DNA of 64,000 nt, taken from IMG/VR virus record IMGVR_UViG_3300005563_000031, positions 32,001 through 96,000 of that record; one strand, 5' to 3'. Position 1 is the first letter of the stretch. Every line of letters begins with the position of its first letter. This stretch comes from a virus. Below the pieces are notes generated by a model that worked only from the letters and a program-made list of their open reading frames with translations, ran no database searches and was not told the DNA's origin. This document shows, one piece after another, positions 11,970-21,156 of this stretch. A program made the position numbers and the translations under genes.

Positions 11970-13475
11970 ATGGTCACTGCAGTAAAGGTACAAGGTAATG
12001 CGCTCGTAGACGGCGACGGTACGCCGCTACAGCTGCGCGGTGTAAACTGTTCGGCGCTCGAATTCGTGGCGATCCAATACGCCTCCGCATCCCCCAAAAC
12101 CAACTTCGATAACTGGGGCGGCCAAAAGCCGAATCTCAGCGCTGTCAAGTCCTGGGGCGCCAACAGCATCCGTGTGCCTCTCAACGAGCAAAGTTACCTT
12201 GGACTCGTATGCACTGACCAAACCGGTGCGCAACTTTTGGCAGATCCGGGCGGTAACTACCGCAGTGCTGTGAAAGCGATCGTGGACAGTGCGACCGCAT
12301 TGGGGTTGGCGGTGATTTTGGACTTGCACAAGAACACCGCCAACTTCACACCGGCCGGCGCCAGTACGGCAGTGCCTGGCTTGTCCAACACGAGCGGACA
12401 GTCGGAGATGGCGGATGCCGACCACAGCTACGACTTCTGGTCGGCGGTTGCGAACGATTACAAAACCTACCCCAACGTGCTGTTTGACCTCTTTAACGAG
12501 CCGCATATTGACAATTTCCAAAATCCCAGCACTTTCTCACCAAACCCCGGCACTAGCTTGCCGGCAGGACTGAACACCGAAGCGGCATGGGCGTGGGCTG
12601 TGTGGCGCGACGGGGGCACCGGTAAGCTGATCTACGCCAACAACCAGACCTACTCGCAGAACTATGCCTCTGCCGGCATGCAGGCCATGTTGGATGCCGT
12701 GCGCGCGACCGGCGCCACGAACATATGCATGGCGGGCGGGGTATCGTGGGCGCAAGACCTTGCGTTGTGGACGCAGTTTTGTCCCATCGATCCGATCAAA
12801 CAACTGGCGTGCTCGTGGCATGCGTACCCGAGCCAACAGAACCCCGCCTACCCGAGCTATCCGCCGGGCACGTGGTGGGGGCAGCCGAAGGGCTCGTTTG
12901 ATTACGCAGCCGACATTCTCGCCGCCGGCTACCCGATCATTATCGGCGAAACAGGAGACGATCCCAACAACCAACTCATGCCTGTACTGTTGCCGTGGGC
13001 GGATGCGCACAAAGTATCTGTTACCGCGTGGACATGGGATGTGGGGTGGGGGAATGATTCACTCATTGCGGATGCGAGTGGCACACCTGTAAACACCGGC
13101 ATCGCGTACAAACAATGGCTTCAAACGCACACCTCCGGAGGTACTCCTGTGTCCACTACCCAAAATGCAGCCCTGTCGATCGCCTACAACAGCGTGGCCG
13201 GTTTCCCGGCGGGCAGCGTCGTTGACCACATCAACGTTGCACTTACGGCGAAAAACAACACCGCCAACACCCCGCCTGCCAAAAACGTCGCGCCCGGCAC
13301 TGCCAATGTGACCTTCACAGGACTCGCACCGGACACGTACCAAATTGCCGTGCAAGCAATGCCAGCGACGGGCAGCGGGTTTGGCACGCCGGCAAGCGGC
13401 TCGATTACCATTACGCAAGTCAACACCACTATCTCGTTGTCGCTGCCAAGCACTGTCACTGCTACACAGCCGTAA
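11970..13475 (+). CDS. glycoside hydrolase family 5 (cellulase-like) with C-terminal Ig/FN3-like domain
   Basis: LRGVN, WGANSIRVPL, VILDLH, catalytic FNEP and IIGETG, AWTW. Confidence 0.9.
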   Translation: MVTAVKVQGNALVDGDGTPLQLRGVNCSALEFVAIQYASASPKTNFDNWGGQKPNLSAVKSWGANSIRVPLNEQSYLGLVCTDQTGAQLLADPGGNYRSAVKAIVDSATALGLAVILDLHKNTANFTPAGASTAVPGLSNTSGQSEMADADHSYDFWSAVANDYKTYPNVLFDLFNEPHIDNFQNPSTFSPNPGTSLPAGLNTEAAWAWAVWRDGGTGKLIYANNQTYSQNYASAGMQAMLDAVRATGATNICMAGGVSWAQDLALWTQFCPIDPIKQLACSWHAYPSQQNPAYPSYPPGTWWGQPKGSFDYAADILAAGYPIIIGETGDDPNNQLMPVLLPWADAHKVSVTAWTWDVGWGNDSLIADASGTPVNTGIAYKQWLQTHTSGGTPVSTTQNAALSIAYNSVAGFPAGSVVDHINVALTAKNNTANTPPAKNVAPGTANVTFTGLAPDTYQIAVQAMPATGSGFGTPASGSITITQVNTTISLSLPSTVTATQP

Positions 13476-13759: not shown

Positions 13760-13835
13760 TGGATCACCCGGATGGAATCGAACCATCATGTACGATGTTC
13801 AAAGCATCGTTGGGATACCAGTAACCCACAGGTGA
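13760..13835 (-). tRNA. tRNA-Gln(TTG)
   Basis: anticodon arm CGATG-CTTTGAA-CATCG; encoded CCA. Confidence 0.9.
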
Positions 13836-13974
13836 AAAATGAGTCGATTTGAACGTGTGGTGATCCAACTGCTGATCATTATCGCTAATAGGGTAGCGCG
13901 CAGTGCATCACCTGCAGACAGAATAAACATCGATCACGACGGGTGGCCGATGTACGGCGACAAACCCTTTTAAA

Positions 13975-14050
13975 TGGATCAGGCGGTTGGAATCGAACCA
14001 ACGTGAACTGCGTTCAGAGCGCAGTGGGGATGCCAGCAACCCACACCTGA
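13975..14050 (-). tRNA. tRNA-Gln(CTG)
   Basis: CTGCG-CTCTGAA-CGCAG; CCA. Confidence 0.9.
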
Positions 14051-14227
14051 GAATTTCTATGACAACAGAGAAAACTGCTATTTGCGGAGCGATCCGGCCT
14101 CAAGAAAAGCCTACGTGCCGACGTTCGCAAAAGATTGGCGGGCCGCGCTATGTTTGTGGACGCGAACCGAAGCACGAGGGGCCGTGCGGCTGCTGGCGGT
14201 TTTTGTCGCAGGTCGCTGCTGCGAAAT

Positions 14228-14299
14228 TGGCGGGAAGGTAAGGAGTTGCACCCTACTTTTGGGGTTTGGAGTCCCATAGCTCGCTCCGAGCACCGACCC
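14228..14299 (-). tRNA. tRNA-Trp(CCA), atypical
   Basis: loop CTCCAAA; two acceptor mismatches; TGCAA T-loop; CCA. Confidence 0.7.
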
Positions 14300-14307
14300 G
14301 TGAAACT

Positions 14308-14670
14308 ATGCCTATCTACGGTAGTCTAACACTACGCGCACGAATACTGGCAAACGATGAGCCGGCGTGGTTGAAAAAGCACGCACGCCGCGATTACATC
14401 GTGCAAGTACATCTTGCCACACCACGCTGGTACTCGCGTAAAGAAGTCGTACGGCTTAAGCAGAAGGCGCACGAGCTGTCGAAAGCGAAACGACGCAAGT
14501 ACGTACTGGACCACATCATCCCCCTCACACACAAGCGCGTATGCGGTTTAAACGTACACCACAATATGCAAATCATCGATGCCGGCACGAATGCGCGCAA
14601 ATCCAATCACTGGTGCGAGTGGCACGGGGAGTTATTCGCGGAACCTGAGCAGTTTCCACTGTTTCGATAG
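14308..14670 (+). CDS. HNH endonuclease, antisense within tRNA array
   Basis: LDHIIPL...VCGLNVHHNMQII...NARKSN. Confidence 0.85.
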   Translation: MPIYGSLTLRARILANDEPAWLKKHARRDYIVQVHLATPRWYSRKEVVRLKQKAHELSKAKRRKYVLDHIIPLTHKRVCGLNVHHNMQIIDAGTNARKSNHWCEWHGELFAEPEQFPLFR

Positions 14671-14758
14671 CGTGCCGGGCGCCGCGTGCCCATCGGTGCT
14701 AGGAAGTTTTGTGGCCCGCAAGCGGGGAAGATTCCTACGACGGGACGCCCATGCACTC

Positions 14759-14847
14759 TGGCGGAAGGCAGTGAACTCGAATCACAAACGCTTATCGCGT
14801 TCCATCCGCTTTCCAAGCGGCTCGAGGCCCTGCCTCGTTTACCTTCC
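14759..14847 (-). tRNA. tRNA-Ser(GGA)
   Basis: loop TTGGAAA, long V-arm, G73-CCA. Confidence 0.85.
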
Positions 14848-14852
14848 AATGT

Positions 14853-14941
14853 TGGCGGATACCGTAGGAGTCGAACCTACACGGCCCGTTAAGACCCTAA
14901 CACCGCTTTCAAGGCGGGCGAGCGCGCCAGTGCGGGTATCC
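14853..14941 (-). tRNA. tRNA-Ser(TGA), reduced D-arm
   Basis: loop CTTGAAA, long V-arm, G73-CCA. Confidence 0.75.
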
Positions 14942-15015
14942 GAAAAGTAGGTGAGGCCCGGTGCAGCGGATAGCACTTGGACAGGTGCGTCCACACCGGG
15001 GGTCACCGAGCAGCT

Positions 15016-15059
15016 GAACCGGAACTGCGCTTGTTCCTTACTGGCCTTTCGGCCGGTTC
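15016..15059 (-). ncRNA. three-way-junction motif, copy 1
   Basis: GAACC-GGCCGAAAGGCC-AGTAA-[GGAAC/GTTCC]-GGTTC. Confidence 0.6.
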
Positions 15060-15172
15060 GTTTGCGAGTATAAGGGCACTTGCGCGCGGGTGCAGTCGCT
15101 TACTGCACCTTGCGTCACGACCAACGCGCAGCAGGAGCGACACTGCCGCCATGGCGTCTAGCAAGTGTTTTC

Positions 15173-15260
15173 TGGCGGATGGCAATGGAGTCGAACCACA
15201 AGCGCTTGCGCACTCCATCTGTTTTCGAGGCAGTGCTGACACCGTGTCAGTTTACCATCC
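15173..15260 (-). tRNA. tRNA-Ser(CGA)
   Basis: loop CTCGAAA, V-arm, CCA. Confidence 0.85.
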
Positions 15261-15373
15261 GTAAAATCTAAGGCGGTTAGGTTTAAGTAGGGGGCAAACC
15301 CTTACCCGGCGCCGGGCCCAGCATCACCGCAAGCCCCTACCAGTCTTGACCAGCAAGTACCGGTAGGAATGTT

Positions 15374-15462
15374 TGGCGGAAAGCAGTGTACTCGAAACAC
15401 ACACCCGTTAGGATGCCCTCTGTTTAGCAAACAGGTACGAGCGCCTGCCCGTTTTACTTTCC
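15374..15462 (-). tRNA. tRNA-Ser(GCT)
   Basis: loop TTGCTAA, V-arm, CCA. Confidence 0.85.
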
Positions 15463-15468
15463 GTAAAT

Positions 15469-15547
15469 TGGTCCCCGCAGCAGCTTGGGGAGCTGCGACC
15501 GTCCGGTTAAAAGCCGGATGCTCTTCACCCGTGTGAGCTATACGAGG
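15469..15547 (-). tRNA. tRNA-Lys(TTT), non-canonical 6-nt T-loop
   Basis: TCCGG-CTTTTAA-CCGGA; T-arm GCAGC-TCCCAA-GCTGC; CCA. Confidence 0.75.
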
Positions 15548-15553
15548 AATGTT

Positions 15554-15629
15554 TGGTGCTCAGTGATGGAGTTGAACCATCTATCTCCGCGTTACGAATG
15601 CGGCGCATCGCCGGCAATGCTTACCGAGC
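15554..15629 (-). tRNA. tRNA-Thr(CGT)
   Basis: loop TTCGTAA; CCA. Confidence 0.85.
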
Positions 15630-15743
15630 TTATCGGAATAAGAAGACTGTACCAAACATGCTCGCACCATCGGCAGCAAAACACCGCGCGCCATCCTCGT
15701 AGTCGTTTGCCGCACTGTCTGCAGTTCATGTTGGAATTATACA

Positions 15744-15818
15744 TGGAGCCCCACGTTGGACTTGCGCCAACCCTCGCTACTTACAAGGCAGCTACACCGC
15801 TATCTGTGTTTGTAGGGC
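15744..15818 (-). tRNA. tRNA-Thr(TGT)
   Basis: GCTGC-CTTGTAA-GTAGC; CCA. Confidence 0.85.
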
Positions 15819-15883
15819 GAAAAGTACCGCCGAGCCCCTGTGCACACGCAGGTATTGGAAAGGCCCGGCGGATTTTGCAATTA

Positions 15884-15924
15884 GAACCAGACGCTGGCGC
15901 CTTTACTGGCCTTTCGGCCGGTTC
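15884..15924 (-). ncRNA. three-way-junction motif, copy 2
   Basis: 22 nt identical to copy 1; different but paired third stem AGGCG/CGTCT. Confidence 0.6.
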
Positions 15925-15943
15925 AATATGCATACTAACATGT

Positions 15944-16019
15944 TGGTGCCTCACCGACGAATTGCACGTCGCGCCTCATCTTTACCAAAGATGCGTTCCG
16001 CTCGCAGAACTTGAGAGGC
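15944..16019 (-). tRNA. tRNA-Thr(GGT)
   Basis: CATCT-TTGGTAA-AGATG; CCA. Confidence 0.85.
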
Positions 16020-16026
16020 AGTAAAT

Positions 16027-16100
16027 TGGCCTCCACGGTTGGACTCGAACCAACAACAGCAAGCCTTCGGAGGGCTCGCGCCGTATCCGACGGCGTGGAG
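16027..16100 (-). tRNA. tRNA-Arg(CCG), short D-arm
   Basis: loop CTCCGAA; CCA. Confidence 0.75.
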
Positions 16101-16107
16101 TTTAAAG

Positions 16108-16181
16108 TGGCACCCCCGGTTGGACTCGAACCAACATATCTGCCGTTCGTAGCGGCGGATCCTTGTTCCGAAGGCAGGGGC
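16108..16181 (-). tRNA. tRNA-Arg(ACG), short D-arm
   Basis: loop CTACGAA; CCA. Confidence 0.75.
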
Positions 16182-16266
16182 GTAGAAAACTGTCCGGCGG
16201 CAGTAGGCGCGAGTACGGCTTGCGCTTTCGCCGCGCACTTACCTTAAAGGCCTGCCGGTATGGCCG

Positions 16267-16437
16267 TTACACCGGTTTGTAAAGGGCTTGGTAGTAAAAT
16301 AAATGGTTTAGCGTGTCTGAACACAGGCGCTCGCACACTGCCACACCACCGGCCAATAACCACCCTTTGTTTAGGTAGTCAGTGACTTCGTTATTAAAGT
16401 ACTGCAAGTTTGTGTTACTTACTACGATGTATTTCAA
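16267..16437 (-). CDS. DUF1737-like small protein (56 aa, not in ORF track)
   Basis: TTG start; MKYIVVS...EVTDYLNKGWLLAGGVAV...YYQALYK. Confidence 0.7.
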   Translation of the reverse strand: MKYIVVSNTNLQYFNNEVTDYLNKGWLLAGGVAVCERLCSDTLNHLFYYQALYKPV

Positions 16438-16440
16438 TGT

Positions 16441-16536
16441 TGGTACTCGATGTAGGATTTGAACCTAACCCGTTGCAGCCAGTCCGACCGCTCTCGCACG
16501 CTTATAAGGCGCACCCGCACACCAGTGCTATCGAGT
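16441..16536 (-). tRNA. tRNA with TAT (Ile) anticodon and long variable arm
   Basis: TGCGC-CTTATAA-GCGTG; ~29-nt variable region; D tetraloop; A73-CCA. Confidence 0.7.
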
Positions 16537-16635
16537 ATTGCTCCTTTCCGAGGGGCGGCGGGCAGTGTAGTTAGCGACGCTACACTGAGTTGGGAGCTAC
16601 CCAACCAACCCCGCAGGCCCCTCGTACTTCTTTGT

Positions 16636-16710
16636 TGCGGTAGCTGGACTTGCACCAGCCTTAAATCGGCTTATGAAACCGTGGCGAAACTACCTTCGAC
16701 CATATACCGC
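16636..16710 (-). tRNA. tRNA-Met/Ile2(CAT), no encoded CCA
   Basis: loop TTCATAA; TGCAA T-loop; ends A-ACA. Confidence 0.65.
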
Positions 16711-16883
16711 AAAATTGTGCCCGCTTCGCTTTTCATTTCGTGGCAACGGACTAACACGCGGTGGCACCTATCAGCTCCCTACATGCATGCAACGCATTTG
16801 GGCGGGGATGGAGGCAGGGGTTAGGGAATGCGCATGTCTAGAATACGCCAATACACCTAAAGCCGTACCAACACCCCCATACC

Positions 16884-16958
16884 TGGTAGCGGGAGAGGGA
16901 TTCGAACCCCCGACCTTCTGGTTATGAGCCAGACGAGCTACCTCTGCTCTATCCCGCA
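16884..16958 (-). tRNA. initiator-like tRNA-fMet(CAT)
   Basis: 1:72 mismatch, TCTGG-CTCATAA-CCAGA, CCA. Confidence 0.85.
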
Positions 16959-17128
16959 TCAAACAATGCCGCGTTCCTCTTATATACCGGATACGCGGCC
17001 AACCCGGTATTGCAATTCGAGGAGGTGCTGTTGGGACTATCCTACAGGAGAACAAAGGACAGACCGGACTTATGGACGCTACGTGTCCCAACAGCACCGA
17101 CAACCGAACTATACAGCGAACTTTGAAT

Positions 17129-17203
17129 TGGTGCCTCGAGAAGTGCTCGCACCTTCGTATCTGGGTTTTCAGGCCAGCGCTACTCTGTCTCAGCTATCGA
17201 GGC
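17129..17203 (-). tRNA. tRNA-Phe(GAA)
   Basis: loop CTGAAAA; CCA. Confidence 0.8.
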
Positions 17204-17209
17204 AAATAC

Positions 17210-17295
17210 TGGTCCTCACGGCTGGACTTGCACCAGCACGCCGGTTAAGGCACAGCGTTCTCAACACTGCGTGTCTGCTGTTTCACCACGCGAGG
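17210..17295 (-). tRNA. tRNA-Leu(GAG)
   Basis: loop TTGAGAA; V-arm; A73-CCA. Confidence 0.85.
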
Positions 17296-17302
17296 AATAG
17301 TT

Positions 17303-17551
17303 TCAACGGATCGTTTCAATAGTCTTACCATCCTCGTTCATAATGTAGGCGACGTTGTAGGAACAGGACTGGTCCATTCCCACTGTTACCTCTGTAGTTT
17401 CACCCGGTGCGTCGCCGCACTGTATAACCGCGCACAAGTTTTCCTTGTACGTTACGTGGACGGCTTTCGCCTCACGCACTGATATCGCTTCTGTGTATGA
17501 GGGCTTAGCGGGCGCTTCTGGCCCGTACTTATAGAATTTTACTGTCAACAT
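17303..17551 (-). CDS. hypothetical protein inside tRNA array
   Basis: 82 aa; C-terminal AYIMNEDGKTIETI phage motif. Confidence 0.7.
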   Translation of the reverse strand: MLTVKFYKYGPEAPAKPSYTEAISVREAKAVHVTYKENLCAVIQCGDAPGETTEVTVGMDQSCSYNVAYIMNEDGKTIETIR

Positions 17552-17581
17552 AGTCTACTCGTCCTACTACTGCTAAGAAAC

Positions 17582-17665
17582 TGGTACCTCTGGTGAGAGT
17601 TGCACTCACACACCTTGCGGCGCCGGAATTTGAAGCCGGTGCGTCTGCTGTTCCGCCACAGAGGC
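17582..17665 (-). tRNA. tRNA-Leu(CAA)
   Basis: loop TTCAAAT; V-arm; CCA. Confidence 0.85.
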
Positions 17666-17671
17666 AAAAGT

Positions 17672-17748
17672 TGGTATCCCCGGCGGGAGTTGCACCCGCA
17701 GTTGAACGGATTTTAAGTCCGCTGTGTCTGCTATTCCACCACGAGGAT
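17672..17748 (-). tRNA. tRNA-Leu(TAA), short variable loop
   Basis: GCGGA-CTTAAAA-TCCGT; CCA. Confidence 0.8.
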
Positions 17749-17751
17749 GAA

Positions 17752-17822
17752 TGGGCACCCACGGTTGGAGTCGAACCAACGCTGGTAGCTTAGGAGGCCA
17801 CTTTCGTTCCGCCGACGTGGGT
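17752..17822 (-). tRNA. tRNA-Arg(CCT), short D-arm
   Basis: loop CTCCTAA; ends G-CCCA. Confidence 0.7.
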
Positions 17823-17823
17823 A

Positions 17824-17985
17824 TCACAGATGAACAGTACCTGCGACTACGGTAATGGCGAGGATAAGGCAGATCAGCAGCACCGCAATGTGCAGCAGTG
17901 GGCCCGGTTTGCCTATCATCGACATGATCGTGATGATCGCAGCGGCGATCAAAAATACGAGAACGAGAATTGCAGCAGCACTCAT
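17824..17985 (-). CDS. small two-TM membrane protein (53 aa)
   Basis: AAGGAG RBS; MSAAAILVLVFLIAAAII... Confidence 0.65.
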   Translation of the reverse strand: MSAAAILVLVFLIAAAIITIMSMIGKPGPLLHIAVLLICLILAITVVAGTVHL

Positions 17986-18043
17986 GTTGGAAACTCCTTT
18001 TCTAACACGGGTGGGCGGTAGCAAGTAACGCTCCCGACACAGC

Positions 18044-18116
18044 TGGCACCCTCGGTTGGAGTCGAACCAACAGTCTGCGGCTTAGAAGGCGCGCTACCGA
18101 TCCGGCCGGCGAGGGC
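18044..18116 (-). tRNA. tRNA-Arg(TCT), short D-arm
   Basis: loop CTTCTAA; CCA. Confidence 0.7.
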
Positions 18117-18122
18117 GAAGGG

Positions 18123-18194
18123 TGGAGCGGAAAATGGGAGTCGAACCCATCAGCGGCGTCGTTGGCAACGATACCTCACACCATGTGCATCCGC
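18123..18194 (-). tRNA. tRNA-Gly(GCC), short D-arm
   Basis: loop TTGCCAA; U73-CCA. Confidence 0.75.
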
Positions 18195-18202
18195 ATGTTC
18201 AG

Positions 18203-18340
18203 TTCTTTCGTCCGTCCCACTGTTGCATTATGGGCAACCACCCGAGAGGATTTGCCGCTACCTCTGACATCTCCCACTTAAAGGAGGGAGCGCTCTGGTG
18301 CTCTGAGCTACGAGTGTTATCAACAGTCGCCACGAAAGAA
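18203..18340 (-). ncRNA. tRNA-like RNA with enlarged anticodon and T loops on an extended stem
   Basis: core 18239-18316; outer stems TTCTTTCGT/ACGAAAGAA and ACTGTTG/CAACAGT; no CCA. Confidence 0.6.
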
Positions 18341-18342
18341 TT

Positions 18343-18418
18343 TGGTGCATGCTGTTGGATTCGAACCAACTGCCTCCCGGTTATCAGCCGGGTGCGCATC
18401 CGTATGTGCCTCGCATGC
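18343..18418 (-). tRNA. tRNA-Ile(GAT)
   Basis: CCCGG-CTGATAA-CCGGG; CCA. Confidence 0.9.
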
Positions 18419-18535
18419 GAAATAGATGTGGGTATTTGTCCGGCACCCACCGAGCCGTGCGGCTATTGCAGCGTAACCGCGACACCTCCAGCGCTTGCAT
18501 TGGCACTGGACCGGGCCGTTAAAGGTGTAGTGAAG

Positions 18536-18623
18536 TAGGATGTTTGGATTTGCACCAAGACCTCTGTTATTCCGCACGTCTGCGGATTCGACAGTGCTCT
18601 TCTATGACTGAGCTAACACCCTA
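18536..18623 (-). ncRNA. anticodon-less tRNA-like RNA
   Basis: acceptor, D-arm GCTC/GAGC and T-arm present; anticodon loop replaced by internal loop plus TCCGCA-GACG-TGCGGA; no CCA. Confidence 0.65.
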
Positions 18624-18645
18624 CATATTCACTATACCTTGAAGT

Positions 18646-18720
18646 TGGTCGGAGTAGTAGGAATCGAACCTACCTTGTCGTGCTCCCAAAGCACGCGATC
18701 AGCCACTGACCCACACTCCG
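18646..18720 (-). tRNA. tRNA-Pro(TGG)
   Basis: CGTGC-TTTGGGA-GCACG; CCA. Confidence 0.9.
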
Positions 18721-18777
18721 ATGGCGAGTGTCTCTCCGCTCCTGTCACGCCTGGATCGCCCGGCGTTCGGCATTGGC

Positions 18778-18855
18778 TGGTGCGGGTAGCAGGATTTGAA
18801 CCTACGGCCCCGTGCGCCCGAGGCACGTGCTCTGACCAGACTGAGCTATACCCAC
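18778..18855 (-). tRNA. tRNA-Pro(CGG)
   Basis: CGTGC-CTCGGGC-GCACG; CCA. Confidence 0.85.
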
Positions 18856-18865
18856 ATGTTAGAAT

Positions 18866-18942
18866 TGGAGCACCCGGCCGGACTTGCACCGACGATTTTA
18901 ACGCTTTGCAGGCGCCTGCATTTGCTGCTCTGCCACGGGTGC
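18866..18942 (-). tRNA. tRNA-Cys(GCA)
   Basis: loop CTGCAAA; U73-CCA. Confidence 0.85.
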
Positions 18943-18946
18943 GTGT

Positions 18947-19020
18947 TGGAGGGTCGTAATGGAGTCGAACCATTTATGGAGTCCGGTCACAGCGGAGTCC
19001 GGCTACCGAGCCAACGGCCC
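18947..19020 (-). tRNA. tRNA-His(GTG), U73 and no G-1
   Basis: loop CTGTGAC; CCA. Confidence 0.75.
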
Positions 19021-19116
19021 ATTGTTTGTGCCTTCCCGCGCACGGCTTGCGGCCGGTCGATCGCGTGGCGCGAGTCACGGCGCACTCCGAGGTGCGCTGG
19101 GCTTGATCGACAAAGT

Positions 19117-19204
19117 TGGTACCTCTGGAGGGAATTGCACCCCCATGCCGTTTTACGGGCGCTGCGGTCTGAACGCAGTGTGTCTTCTGTTTCACCACAG
19201 AGGC
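19117..19204 (-). tRNA. tRNA-Leu(CAG)
   Basis: CTGCG-TTCAGAC-CGCAG; V-arm; CCA. Confidence 0.85.
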
Positions 19205-19346
19205 AAAATGAGCATTAGGACAGTGCGCTGGTGCCGCGTTGGCATTCGCGCAAACCTCCGTTAGACAGCGCTATCTAACATCATCGATCCTGCTTTATAC
19301 AGCTTGCATAGCCCCACTCGATATGGGACACGGCACTGTCCTAATT

Positions 19347-19421
19347 TGGTAGACCGTACGGGATTCGAACCCGCCTAACATGCTTGAAAGGCACGTTGCA
19401 TCACCGAGACGCATACGGTCC
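19347..19421 (-). tRNA. tRNA-Glu(TTC)
   Basis: loop CTTTCAA; CCA. Confidence 0.8.
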
Positions 19422-19596
19422 GTAAAATTTAAGTGGCTCTGGCGCATAGGGGTACTCGTGTGAGGCGCATGCGCCACTGGCGGAGACAGGTACCTGGCAC
19501 GACTTACGCACCGTTGCTGCGTCGTAACCTGCGCTGGCTTGCCAGGCGAGAGCGGTCTGTGCGGCAGAGCTACTAAGTATACCGCACGACAAACAC

Positions 19597-19674
19597 TGGT
19601 AGACGTGACGAGACTCTAACTCGTTAGGCTACGGTTGAGAACCGCACTGCGCGAGACACTTTGCATTCACGTCC
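19597..19674 (-). tRNA. tRNA-Glu(CTC)
   Basis: TGCGG-TTCTCAA-CCGTA; CCA. Confidence 0.8.
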
Positions 19675-19682
19675 ATAAAAAT

Positions 19683-19754
19683 TGGTGGAGCTGTCGGGAG
19701 TTGAACCCGCAGGGTTTCCTTGCAAGGGAGACCCGTTGCCCGCAACACAACCCC
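19683..19754 (-). tRNA. tRNA-Ala(TGC), short D-arm
   Basis: G3:U70, loop CTTGCAA, A73-CCA. Confidence 0.8.
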
Positions 19755-19856
19755 GTGGTTCTTTGGTCTAGCCCAACATCTGACGGCTGGGCAGGCGCAC
19801 ATAACAGCAACGTCACCGGTAATTAACTGCTACATGTTGATCGCTTTTCGACTTAC

Positions 19857-19932
19857 TGGTAGGCCGCCAGGGATTCGAACCCTGGACCAACTGGTTAAGA
19901 GCCAGCTGCTCTTGCCGCTGAGCTAGCGACCT
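19857..19932 (-). tRNA. tRNA-Lys(CTT)
   Basis: GCTGG-CTCTTAA-CCAGT; canonical; CCA. Confidence 0.92.
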
Positions 19933-20030
19933 ATAAAGTTACGCTTCCGGTCATCTGCGCCGAATATCCCGTGGGCTAGTACCCACATGCTACAGGACAT
20001 GGACGGGCGTACAGAGCCGGACTTGCGTTC

Positions 20031-20121
20031 TGGTGCGTCGCGGATGGAATCGAACCTCGTGCCCTAAAGGGACCTGGTTTACAGCCAGGCGAGCGGCCAC
20101 CACTCCTTACTTGCGCAACGC
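20031..20121 (-). tRNA. tRNA-Tyr(GTA)
   Basis: CCTGG-CTGTAAA-CCAGG; V-arm; CCA. Confidence 0.85.
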
Positions 20122-20126
20122 ATGGT

Positions 20127-20198
20127 TGGTACCCGATGTGAGGATTGAACTCACTCCACCAACTTTGTAGGAGTCGGCGCCGTCCCAACGGTCCGGGC
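20127..20198 (-). tRNA. tRNA-Val(TAC), short D-arm, C33
   Basis: CGACT-CCTACAA-AGTTG; CCA. Confidence 0.7.
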
Positions 20199-20432
20199 AT
20201 AAACAAAAAGGATGACAATAGGCGTGCATCAGACGCCTCGTTTTACGTCACGGCTCGCGCCGCTTGGCTAGCTGCTCGCAGGTGGTCCGTAGACCACCAT
20301 TTTCGTCACCGCTTCTACCAGCGGCTCCTCGAACGTCGTTAGGCCGACTACCCAGCCAATTCTCGTATCCTCAAAAATCGTTGACGACCTATTTTTTATC
20401 GTGGTCAGCCGTCAGTGTTTTCCAGTCCTTTT

Positions 20433-20504
20433 TGGCGCCTCCAACGGGACTCGAACCCGTCACCCACTCGATAGACAGTCGAGTTTCACCCCAGGTGTAG
20501 AGGC
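20433..20504 (-). tRNA. tRNA-Asp(GTC), short D-arm
   Basis: CTCGA-CTGTCTA-TCGAG; G73-CCA. Confidence 0.75.
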
Positions 20505-20520
20505 AGGTTCTAACACTTAG

Positions 20521-20594
20521 CTGTAGGCCTGGGGCTCGAACCCAGCGCATCTCCGTTAACAGCGGAGCCTACACGCCCGGTGCAGTTGCCTACA
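20521..20594 (-). tRNA. tRNA-Asn(GTT), no CCA, flanks extend the acceptor stem
   Basis: CTCCG-CTGTTAA-CGGAG; G73; flanks TCTAACACTT/AAGTGTTAGA (20509-20607). Confidence 0.8.
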
Positions 20595-20609
20595 GCAAAG
20601 TGTTAGATT

Positions 20610-20683
20610 TGGAGCGGACGGTGGGAATCAAACCCACCTCATTGCGTTGGAAGCGCAAGGCCCAGTCACTAGACCACGCCCGC
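20610..20683 (-). tRNA. tRNA-Gly(TCC), first gene of array
   Basis: TTGCG-CTTCCAA-CGCAA; U73-CCA. Confidence 0.9.
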
Positions 20684-20705
20684 TCAAACCTAAATGTCAA
20701 CCGAA

Positions 20706-20718
20706 TTGTTAAAGAACG
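20706..20718 (-). promoter_or_regulatory. rrn-type boxA antitermination element
   Basis: CGTTCTTTAACAA fits GYTCTTTAANA, ~22 nt before first tRNA. Confidence 0.7.
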
Positions 20719-20930
20719 TCCGGTGATTTAGTTTGGGGGTGTTGGAAGGAGAGCGGTTGCTTTCCTTTTTGGCCCCCGTCCTGCACCGGGGGCAGGAGGG
20801 ATTAGAGCTTGGTACCTTCGAGTCGGGGCGCTGTTGGCATAATATTCCAACTATCGCGCCCAAACGTCGCCGCGACGACACATTGCTGCGCCGGATAGGC
20901 TAGACGTGAAGGTACTAAGGATCTAAACAT

Positions 20931-20966
20931 GTCTATATACTAAATTCGATTCGATACACATTGCAA
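20931..20966 (-). promoter_or_regulatory. promoter of tRNA array
   Basis: TTGCAA-18 bp-TAGTAT; contains the early-promoter box GTCTATATACTA in inverted orientation. Confidence 0.6.
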
Positions 20967-21156
20967 GTACTTTCGTAAAAATGCCGGGAGTGGTCAGCTC
21001 CCGGCGAAAGTTACGGACGTATAGCGCAGTGGAAAACCTCGAGAACAACAACACCGAAACTCGAGGCCCATGGTCTGTGCGCGTCAACATCCGGCAGTCG
21101 ACACCTACAAGGGAGGTCGTAAGTGTTTTACCGACTGCATTACAACTATACGCGCG

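Follow-up and report, generated by a model that had tools for sequence, protein, structure and literature searches.

The virus record IMGVR_UViG_3300005563_000031 of IMG/VR is a genome of an uncultured phage, of 105,784 bp (105.8 kb), that CheckV rates as complete. On its (-) strand it carries an array of about 38 tRNAs, whose long non-coding spacers we analysed within a 64-kb window, that is, the whole stretch examined (bases 32001-96000 of the record; all positions below are those of the window). About half of the longer spacers are thermodynamically exceptional in the predicted folds, which are self-contained. We tentatively favour, at slightly less than an even chance, the view that the array is an rrn-like tRNA operon led by a boxA, in which the structured spacers are transcribed, fold on themselves and act in cis, and that they are released as by-products of tRNA maturation. 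Because no array-bearing relative was found among those reached, the claim made for this window is limited to thermodynamics.

Folding of the long spacers

The initial annotation had marked 15 intervals in and beside the array and proposed that most non-coding spacers each hold a different closed, multi-stem RNA with terminal inverted repeats. These intervals are real non-coding, non-tRNA spacers, correctly set between tRNAs that ARAGORN misses at its default threshold. When each interval was folded on the (-) strand and compared with 200 dinucleotide shuffles (Table 1), seven proved strong (z -2.8 to -4.8), three marginal (-1.6 to -2.1) and five indistinguishable from chance (0 to -0.5). The expected advantage over shuffled sequence is therefore real for the seven and absent for the five, and 'most spacers' is better read as 'about half'. 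The interval ends had been picked by a reader in a way that favours closure, so the spacers were also folded in full length, with the borders of the neighbouring features as their ends. These 19 whole spacers gave a mean z of -1.80, with six at z <= -2.9, against a mean of -0.22 and a single such case among 50 coding segments drawn at random from this genome (Mann-Whitney p=5e-5). The array's own tRNAs, folded with exact ends, averaged -1.70. In a genome-wide landscape of 120-nt windows the enrichment was modest (spacers -0.8 sd, tRNAs -0.35, rest of the genome 0); windows that are out of register blur the signal.

Perfect long-range closing stems beyond anything in 200 shuffles were present only in 17024-17098 (14 bp) and 19214-19345 (13 bp). 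Stems of 8 bp in 16549-16624 and at 15858-15915, the latter lying within the spacer 15816-15943 without closing it, were marginal, and the remaining 'terminal repeats' of 5-7 bp were at the level that shuffled sequence gives. The terminal inverted repeats first described thus hold up for two elements, and the description as closed multi-stem RNAs fits some elements, several others being single irregular hairpins.

The strand of the folds is informative. In the minimum free energy (MFE) structures of the in-operon spacers, GNRA or UNCG tetraloops occur five times on the (-) strand and never on the (+) strand; shuffled spacers contain 1.05 ± 0.86, and none of 60 shuffles reached five. The elements sit between tRNAs on the tRNA strand, and RNA-type tetraloops are confined to the transcribed strand. 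Some elements score alike on both strands, and others are clearly better on the (-) strand: 19214-19345 has z -4.4 on (-) versus -2.6 on (+), and 20205-20433 has -3.7 versus -1.7 to -2.0.

The spacers also pair little with their surroundings. Together with 80-nt flanks, the native spacers form 164 predicted cross-pairs, compared with 328 ± 54 for shuffled spacers (minimum 212 in 40 shuffles), and this halving marks them as autonomous folding units. In individual cases the effect is larger, with 2 cross-pairs versus 27 in shuffles for the spacer 20206-20434, and 0 versus 20 for 19945-20021. The tRNA leaders and trailers are uniformly AU- or U-rich, giving a recurrent layout of single-stranded linker, GC-rich folded core and single-stranded linker.

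Among the individual elements, 16549-16624 has the best-defined fold of the set. The element at 19214-19345 occupies its entire spacer, beginning 1 nt past the CCA of one tRNA and stopping 9 nt before the next. An acceptor-like 7-bp pairing followed by ACCA within it was judged a coincidence, as the preceding 17 nt cannot form a T-arm. The hairpin at 17024-17098 is a candidate processing site for a double-strand-specific, RNase III-type enzyme. Two spacers, 14942-15062 and 15816-15943, are copies of one module: they have a common architecture and 22 identical nucleotides in the junction core, and the long hairpin and the junction's second stem are wholly different in sequence with pairing kept, including a 5-bp stem that is fully compensated. 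This compensated stem is the sole comparative evidence within the genome and, coming from two copies only, is suggestive. Apart from the module, the elements all differ from one another and are single-copy in the 105.8-kb genome.

Table 1. Coordinates of the folded intervals, structured elements and other features of the array
Feature	Position in window	Strand	Evidence or remark
tRNA array, about 38 tRNAs and two odd tRNA-like RNAs	13760-20683	(-)	ARAGORN, Rfam, sequence reading, ORF calls
Interval	14672-14757	(-)	z -1.6, marginal
Module copy 1: three-way junction (15016-15059), linker, irregular hairpin (14950-15006), UACUUUUC leader, then tRNA-Ser(UGA)	14942-15062	(-)	Hairpin z -3.7
Interval (hairpin of module copy 1)	14950-15006	(-)	z -3.7, strong
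Two-hairpin element, 91 nt, 7-bp closing stem	15077-15167	(-)	z -2.1, marginal; 6/200 shuffles equally good; stem at chance
Interval	15280-15369	(-)	z -0.2, chance level
Module copy 2: three-way junction (15884-15924), linker, 13-bp hairpin (15827-15871), UACUUUUC leader, then tRNA-Thr(UGU)	15816-15943	(-)	Hairpin z -3.0
Interval (hairpin of module copy 2)	15827-15871	(-)	z -3.0, strong
Spacer Met to type II tRNA, 76-nt Y-shaped three-way junction	16549-16624	(-)	z -4.8, strong; MFE structure is 66% of ensemble
Interval	16740-16870	(-)	z -0.5, chance level
Spacer Phe-Met, 75-nt hairpin, perfect 14-bp stem and small inner hairpin	17024-17098	(-)	z -4.6, strong; stem in 0/200 shuffles
Interval	18427-18528	(-)	z -0.3, chance level
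Interval	19048-19111	(-)	z 0.0, chance level
Spacer Glu-Leu, 132-nt RNA, four hairpins within perfect 13-bp closing stem	19214-19345	(-)	z -4.4, strong; stem in 0/200 shuffles
Interval	19432-19574	(-)	z -0.5, chance level
Spacer Tyr-Lys, 77-nt irregular closed hairpin	19945-20021	(-)	z -2.8, strong; 1/200 shuffles equally good
Interval	20205-20433	(-)	z -3.7, strong
Spacer Asp-Val, 229-nt multi-branched fold, at least 4 hairpins, one UACG tetraloop	20206-20434	(-)	z -3.7
boxA-like element GTTCTTTAACAA	20706-20717	(-)	22 nt upstream of first tRNA
Candidate promoter of operon, just downstream of terminator	~20930-20965	(-)	By-eye reading; consensus scan did not find it
Intrinsic terminator, 8-bp GC stem then ATTTTT, closing the upstream orf99 unit	20983-21005	(-)	Terminator scan
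Structured 3' untranslated region of orf99, outside tRNA operon	21016-21152	(-)	z -2.0, marginal; position relative to terminator
Small ORFs interrupting array	17824-18024, 17303-17551, 16267-16437, 15592-15744	(-)	ORF calls
UGCAA/GCGCAA T-loops	14251, 15767, 15967, 16655, 17233, 17605, 17695, 18555, 18889, 19140	(-)	

The elements from 14942 to 20434 all lie between (-) strand tRNAs, downstream of one terminator, one candidate promoter and one boxA-bearing head, and the region is probably transcribed as a single long untranslated tRNA operon. At its head, GTTCTTTAACAA is the sole perfect match to GYTCTTTAACAA in the window and agrees at 7 of 8 positions with the core of the E. coli rrn BoxA (GCUCUUUA; derived from PMC3177189). 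A single perfect boxA 22 nt before the first tRNA fits an rrn-like long transcript shielded from Rho, and the element is a candidate rrn-type antitermination signal, which suggests that Nus factors act as antiterminators on this phage tRNA operon. The same layout removes one interval from the set: 21016-21152 lies upstream of both the terminator and the start of the operon and hence cannot be freed by tRNA processing, contrary to what had been supposed.

Known families and parallels

The earlier statement that the elements belong to no known family is borne out. In searches with Rfam 15 (4227 models, including GOLLD, ROOL, YrlA, ribozymes, riboswitches and tmRNA), only tRNA-clan matches reached the gathering threshold, and at E up to 10 the spacers returned noise (SgrS, 21.7 bits, or 12-22 across two runs, versus 37; DicF, 15 versus 48; H19_2, 12 versus 50). 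Decayed tRNAs or pseudo-tRNAs were considered and rejected: there was no Rfam tRNA-clan match in any spacer, and blastn-short against the array tRNAs gave chance matches of 9-12 nt. ARAGORN calls some spacers only at thresholds at which coding DNA is called as well. The T-loop motifs GTTCGA, GTGCAA and GCGCAA all fall within tRNAs or within the odd tRNA-like RNA at 18534-18624, and a single GTTCAA match lies in the spacer 13836-13974, outside the 15 intervals; in the structured spacers no anticodon-loop or T-arm mimic was found. An origin as MITE-like or other repeat elements was likewise rejected, since the stem sequences are single-copy across the 105.8-kb genome and have no target-site duplications; besides the tRNAs and the 22-nt motif, the array holds no direct-repeat families.

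Searches for homologues of the elements in IMG/VR, JGI metagenomes, INPHARED phages and 18 other arrays found none. Exact-motif scans of IMG/VR and the JGI metagenomes gave no match to the 22-nt module core, and its 17-nt core matched two chance hairpins with no tRNAs nearby; covariance models built from the single sequences of 16549-16624 and 19214-19345 recovered nothing beyond their own elements. The relatives reached through the tail protein (42 IMG/VR loci and 5 whole records) also lack a tRNA array. The closest relatives by tail protein (P0002, 69% identity; P0003, 58%, a 104-kb contig) are on Logan contigs, outside this set. The spacers show no similarity to the flanking DNA of the relatives reached. 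Cultured phages are distant, the tail tip protein being at most 37% identical to any, and comparison of the array with 50,697 phage records by megablast and blastn gave DNA matches to single tRNAs alone.

A close parallel is the tRNA cluster of phage T4, in which one precursor yields eight tRNAs and the species I and II RNAs (PMC2330249). T4 rnaC (species 1, 139 nt) and rnaD (species 2, 119 nt) are, like the elements here, non-tRNA RNAs on the tRNA strand within a phage tRNA operon; their function is unknown, and both clusters hold an embedded homing-endonuclease gene (HNH-like by eye in this one). The arrangements differ in that T4 has two such RNAs at the end of its operon, whereas seven or eight different ones lie between the tRNAs here. 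T4 rnaC also bears a tRNA-type T-arm hairpin at its 3' end, which the structured spacers lack, and comparison of rnaC and rnaD with the array gave matches only to tRNA T-arms, none to spacers. In the same folding test rnaC, a proven stable RNA, scores z -4.6, like the best elements here, and rnaD only -0.8, so that folding energy neither proves nor excludes accumulation.

Bacterial rrn operons offer a second comparison, with a boxA just upstream of the first structural RNA and a long untranslated transcript, to which the boxA-like element and layout seen here correspond. Long helices closing the rrn spacers are possible double-strand processing sites (PMC10250234), but the helices here are shorter, at 13-14 bp. 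Set against the approximately two turns of near-perfect helix expected of an RNase III stem, the perfect 14-bp and 13-bp stems are shorter than in classical substrates, and the other elements have closing stems of 5-8 bp. The cargo here is tRNA only, the window has a single boxA, and no RNase III was found in the phage. In E. coli, the 3' external transcribed spacer (3'ETS) of glyW-cysT-leuZ is a small RNA (sRNA) sponge freed from the tRNA precursor by RNase E (bioRxiv 10.1101/2021.04.25.441314); such sponges pair through unstructured seeds with Hfq, whereas the elements here are mostly closed helices. Phage tRNA islands also hold GOLLD, ROOL and YrlA-type Y RNAs, whose folds are structured, whose function is unknown and whose genes lie clustered with those of tRNAs (PMC12286853). 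GOLLD and ROOL are far larger than the elements here (45-230 nt), none of the three has an Rfam match here, and no Ro60/TROVE gene was found in this phage.

Readings of the structured spacers

If the spacers act in cis, their GC-rich cores would pair internally and spare the neighbouring tRNAs from mispairing with spacer sequence during co-transcriptional folding; many of the tRNAs that would be insulated in this way are non-canonical. The AU-rich linkers would be left open to RNase E and RNase P; double-strand (RNase III-type) entry could in addition take place at the two long perfect stems, and the folded cores would halt 3' exonucleases. Cuts at the flanking tRNAs would free the cores as by-product RNAs, some of which may persist like T4 species 1 and 2. 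That cuts by RNase P and RNase E at the flanking tRNAs would bring about the release proposed earlier for these intervals is a sound expectation from the processing of tRNA operons and from the T4 precedent (PMC2330249).

In support of this reading, the spacers are more structured than the coding controls and as structured as the array's tRNAs, and elements that are all different and single-copy are what would be expected if self-pairing alone, rather than a specific sequence, is selected. The tetraloops on the transcribed strand, the halved cross-pairing, the AU-rich leaders and trailers, the boxA and the T4 precedent count in its favour too. Spacers of 50-260 nt (n=72) from 17 unrelated phage tRNA arrays, taken from the 18 found with the T-loop pattern described below, have a mean z of -1.49 with 19% at z <= -2.9. 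Some of these spacers may be undetected tRNAs, but the similar tendency suggests that such operons share it in general. We also noted an unrelated phage contig (IMGVR_UViG_3300045391_005805; GC 0.55) with 37-46 tRNAs in 12 kb, in which 6 of 15 spacers have z <= -2.9. Several observations nevertheless weigh against the cis-acting reading. Among spacers of comparable length, five or six show no structure, so insulation either is not needed or does not apply throughout. In the duplicated three-way-junction module 22 nucleotides are the same in both copies, a sign that a specific sequence may be recognised and that self-pairing is not all that counts. Classical RNase III substrates have longer stems than the 13-14 bp seen here. 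The drop in cross-pairing is a near-automatic result of strong self-folding and does not separate this reading from one in which the spacers are independent RNA genes.

The view of the initial annotation, that each spacer is an independent gene for a distinct trans-acting decoy, sponge or protein-binding RNA matured through tRNA punctuation, seems to us unlikely, although much of the folding evidence would suit it. The stability of the elements exceeds that of the tRNAs themselves (z down to -4.8), the folds are well defined, as in 16549-16624 with its 66% MFE occupancy, the tetraloops are strand-specific, and the duplicated module combines an invariant 22-nt core with compensated stems. The precedents agree as well, T4 rnaC being a proven stable tRNA-operon RNA with an equally low z, and E. 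coli tRNA-operon spacers acting as sRNA sponges (bioRxiv 10.1101/2021.04.25.441314). Against this, no homologue of any element and no Rfam match emerged from the searches described above, the phage encodes no partner protein among those looked for (Ro60/TROVE, RtcB, RNase III and a CCA-adding enzyme), the structured spacers carry no tRNA-mimicking loops or T-arms, and one third of the listed intervals are unstructured; a library of decoys accordingly finds no support here. A narrower version, in which only the seven or eight strong spacers are unrelated small-RNA genes in a boxA-protected operon, cut out by host tRNA-processing enzymes as a 'cargo array' of sponges or decoys with the duplicated junction module as recognition handle, is a shade less probable again. 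We give a still smaller chance to the idea that the palindromic cores are residues at the DNA level, with no RNA function: scars of recombination, of tRNA-cassette insertion or of homing-endonuclease traffic, or remnants of former genes. The two longest stems are indeed perfect inverted repeats, Watson-Crick throughout and free of G-U pairs, and they score similarly on both strands. The array, which none of the relatives reached possesses, has an HNH-like ORF on its opposite strand, and one of its ORFs, orf82, has homologues in relatives without nearby tRNAs, as if the array had been assembled among pre-existing small genes. Yet there are no repeat families, extra copies or target-site duplications, the spacers resemble neither the relatives' flanking DNA nor tRNAs, tetraloop enrichment is confined to the transcribed strand, and several elements fold clearly better on the (-) strand.

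Transcriptional punctuation, in which a hairpin and the U-rich leader of the following tRNA act together as a leaky terminator or a pause site, so that the dose of tRNA would change stepwise from one part of the array to the next, is in our judgement distinctly improbable. Several cores do have U-rich leaders 0-9 nt downstream (for example UACUUUUC, GCUCAUUUU and CCUUUUU), and a boxA at the operon head would modulate read-through. However, a terminator scan found 12 sites versus 8.8 ± 3.1 in shuffles, none of them at structured elements; almost every tRNA has a U-rich leader, whether or not a hairpin stands before it, and the multi-branched elements are unlike terminators. Chance or composition is the right call for the five weak intervals, whose z lies between 0 and -0.5, and it could draw further on the closing stems of 5-7 bp, which are equally frequent in shuffles, and on the choice of interval ends. 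For the seven strong elements it is refuted, as the whole-spacer tests without chosen ends remain significant and perfect stems of 13-14 bp occur in 0 of 200 shuffles, so that as an account of the whole set it is very improbable.

Array context and wider meaning

The tRNA content of the array depends strongly on how it is read. ARAGORN reports 23 tRNAs at its default setting and 32 at a relaxed threshold, Rfam contributes Phe, Lys(UUU) and Asp, and reading by eye adds Trp, Thr(UGU), a second CAU, Gly(GCC) and Val, some of which are regained at lower ARAGORN thresholds. Between positions 13000 and 22500, ARAGORN at default overlooks about 15 tRNAs, and the Rfam tRNA model overlooks many that ARAGORN calls (His, Asn, Thr(GGU), three Arg and others). 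Standard annotation would undercount this array badly.

About ten of the tRNAs have a UGCAA (or GCGCAA) T-loop, with G at position 55, instead of the near-universal UUCGA or UUCAA. A T-loop pattern search found 18 other phage tRNA arrays with UGCAA T-loops in IMG/VR, none of which has spacers in common with this one (blastn; covariance models of two elements). The odd T-loop thus recurs in phage arrays and may be related to escape from nucleases that target the T-loop, such as SegB-type homing enzymes (PMC2330249). Two tRNA-like RNAs, at 18235-18320 and 18534-18624 (-), have normal acceptor and D arms and an enlarged or extended anticodon region; the second, of 91 nt, is called 'Gly' by ARAGORN at the relaxed threshold only. 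A 96-nt tRNA at 16441-16536 (-) has a long variable arm and the anticodon loop CUUAUAA, read as UAU by eye and as Leu(UAA) by ARAGORN.

Five small (-) strand ORFs lie within the array or immediately upstream of it, one of them DUF1737-like. The ORF at 14266-14670 is on the (+) strand inside the array and is HNH endonuclease-like, with an HNH motif seen by eye and no Pfam match; because it is on the opposite strand, the tRNA transcript must run antisense through it to reach tRNA-Trp and two tRNA-Gln. The 82-aa orf82 (17303-17551, (-)) belongs to a small conserved family with five homologues at 59-68% identity; three further contigs encode an orf82 identical to protein P0121 of this family. Homologous loci were found in JGI metagenomes (5) and IMG/VR (3), with one contig common to both, and these seven relatives have neither tRNAs nearby nor anything else in common with the array, spacers included. 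Such tRNA-free contexts suggest that the array was assembled around pre-existing small genes. A glycoside hydrolase family 5 (cellulase) gene adjoins the array at 11970-13475 (+) (Pfam E=5e-33).

Codon supply or an anti-defence role is the usual interpretation of large phage tRNA arrays, with no notice taken of the spacers. That non-tRNA structured segments are co-transcribed in phage tRNA operons is already known, and the present array is an interesting but unproven further instance, in which about half of the long spacers fold at least as well as tRNAs. Should polycistronic tRNA precursors be built by such a folding rule, for insulation and processing, this would matter for the annotation and engineering of tRNA operons; should some of the spacers be working RNAs, phage tRNA arrays would hold new classes of RNA that have so far been overlooked.

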